44,584 nt of DNA from a virus (IMGVR_UViG_2529292883_000001:1-44584), one strand, 5' to 3'; shown: positions 21,627 to 23,454, counted from the first letter of the stretch. Notes: generated from the letters alone by a model not told the origin. Numbers and translations: made by a program.

Positions 21627-21899
21627 TTACCTCCAGATCCGTTGCTGGTATGTGCGGGATGAACGCGGTGGGCGTTCGGAGTAAGGGAGTCTGACTGAGA
21701 TTATCCAGTGACGGTAGTCGAGGCTAAGGGCTTTCTTAAACTCATACCCACGTCTGCGGTAGTTATGAATCAGCCATTCGGCCTGTTCTTCAGTGCAGGG
21801 ATCGTGCTGATACCAGTCATATTTGAATGCGTGAGAACGCAGCCCGTGCCTGCTGGCAAGGTCGGTATCAGAATTGTGATGTTTGGTATTGTGCGCCAT
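21627..21899 (-). CDS. Hypothetical prophage protein
   Basis: ORF 21627..21980 trimmed to internal ATG at 21899 (MAHNTKHHNSD...), which abuts the upstream terminator. Confidence 0.35.
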   Translation of the reverse strand: MAHNTKHHNSDTDLASRHGLRSHAFKYDWYQHDPCTEEQAEWLIHNYRRRGYEFKKALSLDYRHWIISVRLPYSERPPRSSRTYQQRIWR

Positions 21900-21970
21900 C
21901 GGTTGTCTCTGCTGGCGCAGCAGGTGCCAGTTGTTCAGGCTGGCGTGCGTATTGTAAACCAGAATGCCAG

Positions 21971-21996
21971 AAAAAAACAAAACCCGCCGAAGCGGG
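21971..21996 (-). terminator. Rho-independent terminator downstream of the lipoprotein moron
   Basis: Minus strand CCCGCTTCGGCGGG followed by TTTTGTTTTTTTC. Confidence 0.55.
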
Positions 21997-22126
21997 TATG
22001 CTAAAACAAACTGAAGGTAATATGCCGGACTTGTAAAGGAACGATAGAATAATTATCGGATTAAATCCTGACTCAATCCATAGGGTTTACAGCGTTTTCA
22101 CTAATAATTTACCGTCCCGCTATACA

Positions 22127-22519
22127 TTACTGCCCAGTTTTAACGAAGTTTTTAAAGGAAACAATTGCCTGATAGGGGTTTGGTTGACAGCCAAACATAT
22201 TATCGCAAAAAGGCTTGATGAAAATTCTTGCGGATCCATCTTCATTTGGCATTTTACTCACTTGATAAGCGAGGAATGGGCTATTTGGTGAAGGGTTATA
22301 AGTGGAAATTAGCGTGTCTGTCGCCGTTTGAATTTTCCATGAGGAATTATTAGCCAACCAGAATTGCGCTCGTTTCCAATAAAAGTCACATTGCTTTTCA
22401 TCATTACATGTTAGTGGCTTCATTGCTTCTGCTTTCAACGCTGGATCGACCTTTGCTGCACACCCTCCCAACATTACTGTTGCAATCATTACACCTGCGA
22501 CTAAAACAAGTTTCTTCAT
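22127..22519 (-). CDS. Lipoprotein moron (signal peptide plus lipobox LGGC), Cys-rich mature part
   Basis: 130-aa ORF MKKLVLVAGVMIATVMLGGCAAK...; AT-rich by eye; own terminator. Confidence 0.7.
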   Translation of the reverse strand: MKKLVLVAGVMIATVMLGGCAAKVDPALKAEAMKPLTCNDEKQCDFYWKRAQFWLANNSSWKIQTATDTLISTYNPSPNSPFLAYQVSKMPNEDGSARIFIKPFCDNMFGCQPNPYQAIVSFKNFVKTGQ

Positions 22520-22572
22520 CTCCCTGCCCCATCAATAAAAGTTCGGTTCTCTAATAACTAGAGTTAATCAAC

Positions 22573-22592
22573 GGAAAAAACGCCGAAGCGGG
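22573..22592 (-). terminator. Weak hairpin plus U6 downstream of hok
   Basis: Minus strand ACCCGCTTCGGCGTTTTTTCC; stem only 3-4 bp. Confidence 0.3.
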
Positions 22593-22662
22593 TTAAGTGC
22601 GGGTGCGTTGAGGATGCCTGACACATCAGAGGTGGCGAGGGATTTCTCCCCCGCCTGGTCTC

Positions 22663-22818
22663 TTACTCCTCAGGTTCGTAAGCTGTGAAGACAGTGACCT
22701 CCGTCTGGCCGGTTCGGATTCGTACCTCGCAGAGGTCTTTCCTCGTTACCAGTGCCGTCACAATGACGGTAATACAGATGACGATCAGGGCGACTAACAT
22801 CGCCTTTTGCTGCTTCAT
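22663..22818 (-). CDS. hok: Hok/Gef-family type I toxin
   Basis: ORF 22663..22875 trimmed to internal ATG at 22818 preceded by AAGGAG; product MKQQKAMLVALIVICITVIVTALVTRKDLCEVRIRTGQTEVTVFTAYEPEE matches the Hok family. Confidence 0.85.
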   Translation of the reverse strand: MKQQKAMLVALIVICITVIVTALVTRKDLCEVRIRTGQTEVTVFTAYEPEE

Positions 22819-23109
22819 AGCCTGCTTCTCCTTGCCTTTCGGCGCGTAAGAGGCTAACCTAGATTTGCCGTTCATAGATTGAGCCTCAGATTAATGTTAA
22901 GCGTCTTGCCGGACGCGTAATGTTAACTGGGGCTTTTCTCTATCTGCCTTTTGGTGTTCATGCCTGAGACAGATAGCCTCAAGCACCCGCTGCAATTCTA
23001 CTTAACTCTCCTTTTCCCGCAAACCGTTTTTATCCCCAGCGGCAAATCGAATACACCACCAGCGCCACCGCCATCGCAATTCCTACCGTTGTTAATGCTT
23101 CAGGCCAGG

Positions 23110-23454
23110 TCATCGTAAAATATCCTCCACGCTTATCAGTCCGTTCCGCTCCAGATAACTCATCGCCTTATCCGGTAATTTGCAGTCTGGCTTCGCTTTC
23201 CTCAGTTGCCAGGTTAACTGCTTTACCAGCATGGTTAACTCATCGACCAGACGCTGATATCCCACTGGTTTGTATTCATGCAATTTACCGGCTGGCTCTG
23301 CTGCCAGCGATACCAGTGCGATTTCCAGAACAGCAATATCCATCTTATATGTGCGGATGATGTCATGGTCGATTGTGCCCGGTATGCACAGTCTCTGTGC
23401 TTCAATAGTCTCCTCTGCGTGAGCTATTAACTGCTCTCTGGTAAAAGTCGTCAT
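23110..23454 (-). CDS. Hypothetical prophage protein (shares N-terminal T(R/K)EQLI motif with the 24038..24445 product)
   Basis: 114-aa [24 protein letters not shown]...[10 protein letters not shown]... Confidence 0.4.

Follow-up and report, generated by a model that had tools for sequence, protein, structure and literature searches.

The mechanism of the hok/sok module of plasmid R1, the prototype of type I toxin-antitoxin systems, is described in the literature of the Gerdes laboratory. The locus described here lies on a viral stretch of DNA of 44,584 nucleotides (nt), IMGVR_UViG_2529292883_000001:1-44584, which is referred to as the window, and consists of a hok/mok/sok type I toxin-antitoxin module that is followed by a lipoprotein gene (Table 1). 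Its closest characterised homologue is hokW-sokW of 933W and Sakai Sp5, whose toxins are approximately 44% identical to R1 Hok (PMC8621323). HokW is toxic and is neutralised by sokW, depending on RNase III and Hfq (PMC8621323). After induction sokW disappears, and HokW speeds lysis and doubles phage release (PMC8621323). In Sp5 and 933W, sokW was silenced by mutating its -10 hexamer TAACCT with the primers YO-421/422 (PMC8621323).

With a probability of about 0.55, the region is a single composite accessory unit within the nin-like region of a lambdoid prophage of the Qin/Rac type, comprising the hok/mok/sok module, a cassette inserted in the terminator of hok and, on this cassette, an exclusion-type lipoprotein. 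The insertion of an AT-rich 596-bp (base pair) cassette has left hok with a crippled hairpin and the unit with a single strong terminator after the lipoprotein gene. The functional unit extends over approximately 21971..23023. An initial annotation had described two self-contained morons at 22127-22818, which is a part of this unit only: beyond it lie the 5' end of mok, Sok, the two promoters and the terminator that the genes share. Its statement that both genes lie on the minus strand is confirmed by the list of open reading frames (ORFs) and by the minus-strand reading of 21800-23400.

Table 1. Parts of the hok-lipoprotein unit; positions are counted from the first nucleotide of the window (aa, amino acids; CDS, coding sequence; MFE, minimum free energy).
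Feature	Position	Strand	Basis
Candidate hok promoter, TTTGCG-17-TAGAAT	22995..23023	-	Relaxed hexamer scan (8/12); identical in 933W
Predicted hok mRNA	22575..22988	-	Rfam leader match and MFE fold
tac element GGGUGCUUGAGG, 5' end of mRNA	22988..22977	-	Pairs with fbi in MFE fold
Sok antisense RNA, 71 nt, complementary to mok start region	22867..22937	+	Aligns with annotated sokW misc_RNA
mok frame, 70 aa, in frame with and containing hok	22663..22875	-	ORF list, alignment to mokW
sok promoter, TTGCCT-17-TAACCT	22832..22860	+	Hexamers identical to sokW
hok toxin CDS, 51 aa, MKQQKAMLVALIVICITVIVTALVTRKDLCEVRIRTGQTEVTVFTAYEPEE	22663..22818	-	Pfam HOK_GEF, PHROG 251, HokD/HokW identity
fbi element CCUCAACGCACCC, 3' end of mRNA	22613..22601	-	Pairs with tac in MFE fold
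Truncated hok terminator: left copy of 13-nt repeat ACCCGCTTCGGCG (22593..22581), then T6	22575..22593	-	Hairpin energy
Inserted cassette, 596 bp, 40% GC, with lipoprotein gene and, at its end, right repeat copy (21997..21985)	21985..22580	-	Empty-site matches, alignments
Lipoprotein CDS, 130 aa, signal peptide, lipobox LGGC20, Ala at +2, C38-x5-C44 and C105-x5-C111	22127..22519	-	ORF, PHROGs, alignments
Strong intrinsic terminator ACCCGCTTCGGCGGGT and T-run TTTTGTTTTTTT, now serving the hok-lipoprotein unit	21971..21997	-	Terminator scan

A cassette inserted in the hok terminator

There is good support for the architecture of this insertion. A 13-nt direct repeat, ACCCGCTTCGGCG, occurs once directly before the cassette and once at its end, with 0.07 matches expected by chance in the window. 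The hairpin left after hok is a 3-bp stem, CGC-TTCG-GCG, of -3.1 kcal/mol, which is no better than shuffled sequences, compared to -13.8 kcal/mol for the intact version of other strains. The sole terminator-like site in 21900-23200 follows the lipoprotein gene (-13.1 kcal/mol, z=-3.5) and is identical in sequence to the terminator that hok has at empty sites. The hairpin terminator that had been assigned to each of the two genes is therefore reduced to a single good one, and the structure after hok is a remnant.

Empty sites were sought with a synthetic sequence in which the 3' end of hok was joined to the sequence beyond the second repeat. It is matched in one piece, with approximately 95% identity, in many E. 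coli genomes. Alignment of strain MB06231 and of K-12 Qin places the intact hairpin ACCCGCTTCGGCGGGT and its T-run directly after hok. Because hok directly precedes the intact terminator at the empty sites, the 596 bp from 22580 to 21985 are identified as an insertion. The cassette has a GC content of 40%, while the hok locus reaches 52% and the window as a whole 50%; the AT-richness noted earlier for both genes thus applies to the lipoprotein cassette and not to hok. Presence and absence among many E. coli prophages together with a deviant base composition (40% versus 50-52% GC) are features of a moron, as is a terminator of its own, which the cassette has at 21997..21971 in a sequence that was originally the hok terminator.

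The same point is occupied by different cargo in 933W. Its sequence diverges from the window at the identical position, and the junction carries L0136, a secreted YgiW/YdeI-like protein (PHROG 1230; 2109-2453 of the 933W locus, minus strand), which has its own terminator, CCCGTCTTACTGACGGG. Among 118 usable hok loci of IMG/VR, approximately 95 have an intact terminator, ten a 933W-type junction, eight the lipoprotein junction and three a 23-nt insertion, where one classification of the 118 loci pools the eight lipoprotein junctions with the intact terminators and another separates them. In E. coli-type IMG/VR loci, the cassette lies directly 3' of hok at the same junction in 55 of 55 cases, while the flanks vary. 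Both hok and the lipoprotein gene are present in 247 of 5426 complete E. coli genomes.

Further variation was observed around this site. The 23-nt insertion, CCATCGCTGTGATCTCTCAGCGT, is located in the loop of the hok terminator hairpin (L120, L148 and L177 of IMG/VR), and another IMG/VR hok locus, L119, diverges right after fbi. In the window, the stretch that separates the remnant hok terminator from the start codon of the lipoprotein gene contains a 5-bp inverted repeat, CTCTA-GTTAT-TAGAG (22549-22563, minus strand).

The lipoprotein, its relatives and its possible role

The 130-aa product was previously annotated as a lipoprotein with signal peptide and lipobox, which is borne out by its sequence. 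The protein begins with MKKLVLVAGVMIATVMLGGC; an MKK n-region is present together with a hydrophobic core, and the lipobox reads L-G-G-C20. The cysteine in MKKLVLVAGVMIATVMLGG-C20 is invariant in alignments of 40 and 30 members, and the lipobox of relatives reads LSGC, LAGC or LTAC. Specifically, Cys20, Pro35, Cys38, Cys44, Trp48, Thr73, Cys105 and Cys111 are invariant or nearly so in 30-40 diverse members. The four cysteines outside the lipobox make up two C-x5-C motifs and thereby point to a periplasmic protein that is stabilised by disulfides. According to the Lol sorting rule, lipoproteins with a +2 residue other than Asp are targeted to the outer membrane. As the +2 residue is Ala, outer-membrane sorting is predicted, and the protein would be anchored there either facing the periplasm or in the surface leaflet.

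The family is large and has no name, and temperate phages are the main carriers of its stand-alone members. The lipoprotein has no match in Pfam (E<=0.01) or NCBIfam, and the lipoprotein domain of 39 relatives matched no Pfam family at E<=0.01, Lambda_Bor included. The domains that Pfam detected in these 39 relatives are PDZ (12 members), one DUF4124 and one DUF1930. PADLOC-DB v2 gave no defence profile at E<=0.1 for the lipoprotein, Mok/Hok or three relatives. The lipoprotein matches two PHROGs, 16082 (E=6e-84) and 4186 (E=1e-8), both of unknown function. A word-indexed search returned 16 close relatives in Enterobacterales, all of them annotated as hypothetical, and 1142 clusters came up at E<=1e-3 when profiles were searched exhaustively, with 531 of them reaching E<=1e-10; these clusters are representatives at 50% identity. 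A scan of genome contigs with the alignment of close relatives gave no confirmed locus, and searches of viral contigs that each started from one distant member detected a single locus at most. Broader alignments proved too divergent for use in pattern scans. A full-text literature search for the RefSeq entry WP_000737635 found nothing.

A model computed with AlphaFold2 from a 30-sequence alignment has a pLDDT (predicted local distance difference test) of 94.8. Its predicted fold resembles Flpp3, a Francisella lipoprotein, and the N-terminal domain of BamC. Foldseek against the viral BFVD gave no match at E<=0.001, and a sequence-profile search of the PDB returned PDZ domains only, by way of fused relatives. 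A C-terminal DegP-like PDZ domain is present in 12 of 40 members scanned, a set chosen to include longer ones. The longer members, with approximately 220-270 aa and a DegP/DegS-like C-terminal PDZ domain, include P0032, P0037, P0064, P0079, P0103 and P0118.

All ten stand-alone relatives that were examined lie in phage or prophage DNA. In Enterobacter, the relative is located between the tape-measure gene and gpM. In Pantoea ananatis and related viral contigs it lies between or near gpI and gpJ, and a second Pantoea relative lies between Ant/Arc and gpJ. The Phytobacter relative is part of a prophage remnant. In a Burkholderiales metagenome-assembled genome, the relative is encoded on the opposite strand and adjoins a 1150-aa tail-cluster protein and an Mrr-type nuclease. 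One relative adjoins an S24 repressor, another is found in an immunity region with a helix-turn-helix repressor and YdaS/YdaT, and a third is placed at the early/late junction of a prophage. Relatives also occur on two further viral contigs. In the Burkholderiales case, on the phage-like contig L007 (6371-6937, plus strand), the relative is followed by an overlapping Mrr_cat restriction-endonuclease-like gene, both on the strand opposite to the tail genes. This pair is possibly a two-gene accessory or defence islet.

Genes for exclusion tend to adjoin those for receptor-binding or DNA-entry proteins or the repressor, with Cor, Llp, HK97 gp15 and Ltp as examples. The position of many relatives beside such genes favours superinfection exclusion or receptor masking as the role of the lipoprotein, a tentative assignment that falls short of even odds. 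The favoured guess is that the protein acts in the outer membrane and either blocks superinfecting phages or modifies the envelope. By masking or altering a part of the envelope that phages use to enter, it would shield the lysogen or the phage progeny.

Several points weigh against this assignment. No experiment or homology ties the lipoprotein to phage exclusion, and PADLOC, Pfam and NCBIfam are without a match. The initial annotation had suggested a homology search that included the Cor and Bor families; the Cor match is confined to the signal peptide, and no Lambda_Bor domain was detected. In E. coli, the lipoprotein gene is uncoupled from tail genes. Furthermore, both PDZ-fused members that were looked at are located in non-phage chromosomal contexts, which suggests that the basic activity of the domain is a periplasmic protein-protein interaction and not specific to phages. 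The neighbourhood of one of these two contains type II secretion system genes and an OEP gene.

The most credible alternative, in itself unlikely, is a conversion factor that contributes to host fitness or virulence through serum or complement resistance, envelope-stress tolerance or adhesion, in a role like that of lambda Bor/Iss or the YgiW-like protein of 933W. As 933W and its relatives hold other secreted cargo, L0136, at the same post-hok junction, the slot seems to be a general place for envelope or stress proteins. Carriers of hok and the lipoprotein gene are largely poultry, human and animal isolates; the chromosomal PDZ-fused relatives point to a general periplasmic role, and the resemblance of the predicted fold to Flpp3 and BamC-N fits such a function as well. 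However, the lipoprotein has no sequence similarity to Bor/Iss or any Pfam family, and unrelated phages repeatedly carry its relatives beside tail-tip genes and repressors, a placement that would sooner be expected of exclusion genes.

Less probable still is a periplasmic inhibitor or immunity protein directed against an envelope-acting enzyme, such as a lysozyme, a peptidoglycan hydrolase (phage tail lysins included), a type VI secretion system effector or a bacteriocin. Several inhibitor families are small disulfide-stabilised periplasmic proteins, a design that the lipoprotein with its two conserved C-x5-C loops would share, and NlpC/P60 (gpK-like) hydrolases are encoded in the same tail modules as several of its relatives. 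However, the window has no gene for a partner effector next to the lipoprotein gene. An o-spanin of the Rz1 type was rejected, as the prophage lysis cassette is located elsewhere and the lipoprotein, with 130 aa and a folded structure, is no short Pro-rich peptide.

The lead of this analysis is a sizeable, unnamed lipoprotein family that is associated with phages in every stand-alone context sampled and has a confident structural model. If the lipoprotein blocks phage entry, a new family would be added to the short list of receptor-masking lipoproteins, and the prediction of phage resistance in lysogens would be aided, which is relevant to phage therapy of avian pathogenic and extraintestinal pathogenic E. 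coli. A bolder generalisation is doubtful: the hok terminator may be a recurrent landing site that provides secreted cargo with constitutive expression in the prophage state, and the lipoprotein family, with more than 1000 clusters, may represent a new superinfection-exclusion or receptor-masking class with the present gene as its founding E. coli example.

The hok/mok/sok module and expression of the unit

The identification of the hok/mok/sok module is secure, and modules of this kind are already known. As reported previously, a Hok/Gef ORF with a strong ribosome-binding site and an in-frame upstream extension is present. The ORF matches HOK_GEF (PF01848) with E=2.9e-22 and 78 bits against a cut-off of 22, as well as PHROG 251, described as MokW-like host killing (E=1.5e-31). 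It is preceded by the Shine-Dalgarno (SD) sequence AAGGAG at a distance of 9 nt. An orthologue is labelled HokD by PGAP; the toxin shares 48 of 51 aa with K-12 HokD (49 of 52 counting the stop) and 44 of 51 with HokW (45 of 52 counting the stop). The in-frame extension is mok, whose ATG at 22875 has GAGG 8 nt upstream and whose product is identical to the annotated mokW of 933W in 58 of 70 aa. On the DNA level, the locus is 91-92% identical to mokW/hokW/sokW of 933W over approximately 520 nt. A locus 96% identical to the E. coli one was also found in PP818812.1, which is named Actinobacillus phage vB_Apl-pPE4, an odd host attribution.

The search for sok and mok promoters and an fbi structure upstream, which the initial annotation had proposed, revealed the Sok RNA, candidate promoters and tac-fbi pairing. 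Rfam RF01794, named sok, matches at 22813..22988 with 111 bits against a gathering score of 59. Since this match has the sense orientation of hok and stops at the hok AUG, the family models the hok mRNA leader, and Sok is the complement of a part of it. In the predicted fold of the mRNA (22988..22572; -155 kcal/mol, z=-5.6), the extreme 5' end GGGUGCUUGAGG pairs with CCUCAACGCACCC, corresponding to the tac-fbi fold-back, and the hok SD is occluded by a local hairpin. The candidate hok promoter stops 6 nt ahead of the predicted GGGUGC start. For Sok, the predicted fold (-31.4 kcal/mol, z=-5.3) has a long hairpin between a single-stranded 5' tail and a U-tract. Judged from its sequence, the locus thus has the parts that characterise a hok/sok module, namely a Hok/Gef toxin, an overlapping mok, an antisense Sok with promoter and hairpin, and a leader with tac-fbi pairing.

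In the proposed mechanism, a weak constitutive promoter would yield a hok mRNA of approximately 410 nt, which would be untranslatable due to the pairing of the 5' tac with the 3' fbi and the sequestration of the SD. The 71-nt Sok, transcribed from a promoter within mok/hok, would pair with the mok start region and block translation of mok and the coupled translation of hok. Upon loss of Sok, Hok would be made, enter the inner membrane and kill or lyse the cell, for hokW following prophage induction. Exclusion of T4-like phages by hok, as had been considered, finds no parallel in hokW-sokW, which was shown to aid lysis and phage release (PMC8621323).

The lipoprotein gene is most likely expressed by read-through from the hok promoter, as the hok hairpin is crippled and the single strong terminator follows the lipoprotein gene; early phage transcription would contribute during lytic growth. 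A standard scan detected no sigma-70-like promoter in the 245 nt upstream of the lipoprotein start. The best relaxed match scores 7/12 with a poor -10 hexamer, CATCCT, and weak real promoters can score as low. Homology to lipoprotein genes in other genera and contexts begins only approximately 23 nt before the ATG, which indicates that no conserved promoter accompanies the gene. Two points count against read-through. The validated sok promoter scores only 7/12 in the hexamer scan, so a weak lipoprotein promoter may have escaped detection, and the U6 tract with its 3-bp stem might terminate some transcripts. A sigma-E-like GAACTT at 22544..22539 was rejected as the lipoprotein promoter, since its -10 element would overlap the start codon.

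These observations also bear on the possibility that hok and the lipoprotein gene are morons independent of each other, both equipped with a promoter and a terminator and only incidentally adjacent. The difference in GC content between hok locus and cassette, the occurrence of the lipoprotein without hok in other genera, the U6 tract after the remnant hairpin and the weak promoters that can evade consensus scans (sok, 7/12) would suit this explanation, but it is very unlikely, since the hok hairpin retains only 3 bp and does not surpass shuffled sequence, no promoter-like site lies upstream of the lipoprotein gene, homology with other contexts starts only approximately 23 nt before the ATG, and the cassette in E. 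coli is always joined to hok at the same junction. Of the two self-contained morons originally described, hok/sok/mok stands as a complete module, whereas the lipoprotein gene is nested in the hok terminator, with no promoter found, and accompanies hok in all E. coli and IMG/VR copies examined. In the composite unit, it is reasonable to regard both hok and the lipoprotein gene as accessory genes expressed in the lysogen. The terminator-nested architecture would be a way for cargo to borrow a constitutive toxin-antitoxin promoter.

The unit is located between the replication genes on one side and Q on the other, with an HNH/NinG-like gene, DUF968, RusA and Q as neighbours, in agreement with the nin-like region that had been named. 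Directly upstream of the hok promoter lies a 27-codon hydrophobic ORF (23030-23113, minus strand), whose ATG shares nucleotides with the stop codon of the gene before it (ATGA). This ORF is kept in 933W with conservative changes, is without a PHROG match and may encode a small membrane peptide. Elsewhere in the window, Rfam matches comprise DicF RNA (30157-30208, plus strand, 72 bits), the Hfq-binding RNA STnc490 (44145-44268, plus strand, 146 bits), a cluster of five tRNAs between the Q region and the lysis genes (18208-18510, minus strand) and additional tRNAs at 34634-34720 (minus strand) and 35712-35784 (plus strand). A 2685-aa ORF with a TTG start (36027-44084, plus strand) lies past the prophage end and the integrase region, and the J gene of the prophage is beyond the left end of the window.

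Comparison with known systems

The receptor-blocking lipoproteins Cor (phi80/N15/T1) and Llp (T5) and the tail-module moron gp15 of HK97 are small phage envelope proteins whose genes lie by tail or receptor-binding genes, as do many relatives of the lipoprotein; the likeness is one of position and type and goes no further. The Cor family, PHROG 1119, matches with E=0.007 and covers residues 1-44, which corresponds to the signal peptide, without homology in the mature protein. In contrast to Cor, Llp and gp15, the lipoprotein is larger (110 aa in its mature form), has two C-x5-C motifs and a different predicted fold, and its gene in the window is not located near the tail genes. The structural neighbours Flpp3 (DUF3568) and the N-terminal domain of BamC share 12-13% sequence identity with it, with no Pfam match to DUF3568.

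The R1 hok/sok module has the same components as the module in the window, i.e., a Hok/Gef toxin, an overlapping mok, an antisense Sok directed against the mok start and tac-fbi pairing. The R1 module is plasmid-borne and acts in post-segregational killing, whereas the module in the window is prophage-borne and its nearest relative aids lysis and phage release.

K-12 Qin hokD (relF of the relBEF operon) shares with the window the type of prophage neighbourhood, with DUF968/YdfU and Q, as well as the same fbi, and keeps an intact version of the same terminator. However, homology between the two sets in no earlier than the hok SD, and in K-12 tac, the mok start, the Sok target and the Sok promoter are replaced by relBE. 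No relBE is present at the hok locus of the window, as had been noted by contrast with the Qin arrangement, but this is no deficiency. Since the homology begins only at the SD, K-12 hokD is the derived and truncated form, and the locus in the window is the full form, with a complete leader and, in addition, the lipoprotein cassette in its terminator.

The closest likeness is to hokW-sokW of 933W and Sakai Sp5, where mok is likewise in frame with hok and a 71-nt antisense Sok is encoded. The hexamers of the Sok promoter are identical, as are the last 60 of 71 nt of Sok. Differences are found in the C-terminus of Hok and in the first 11 nt of Sok, of which six differ. This 5' tail (22867-22877, plus strand) corresponds to mok codons 2-5, and two tail alleles occur among the fetched loci. 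As the variation of Sok is concentrated in its single-stranded tail, the tail may set the specificity of Sok/hok pairing among co-resident copies, and cross-neutralisation with sokW is not guaranteed. E. coli genomes contain a median of 2 and up to 10 places matching hok. The hok/sok part of the locus adds one more allele and nothing new beyond its diverged Sok recognition tail, which bears on the cross-talk among these 2-10 copies per genome. Both loci have lost the terminator that normally abuts fbi, each to cargo inserted at the same point, which is the lipoprotein in the window and the YgiW-like L0136 in 933W.

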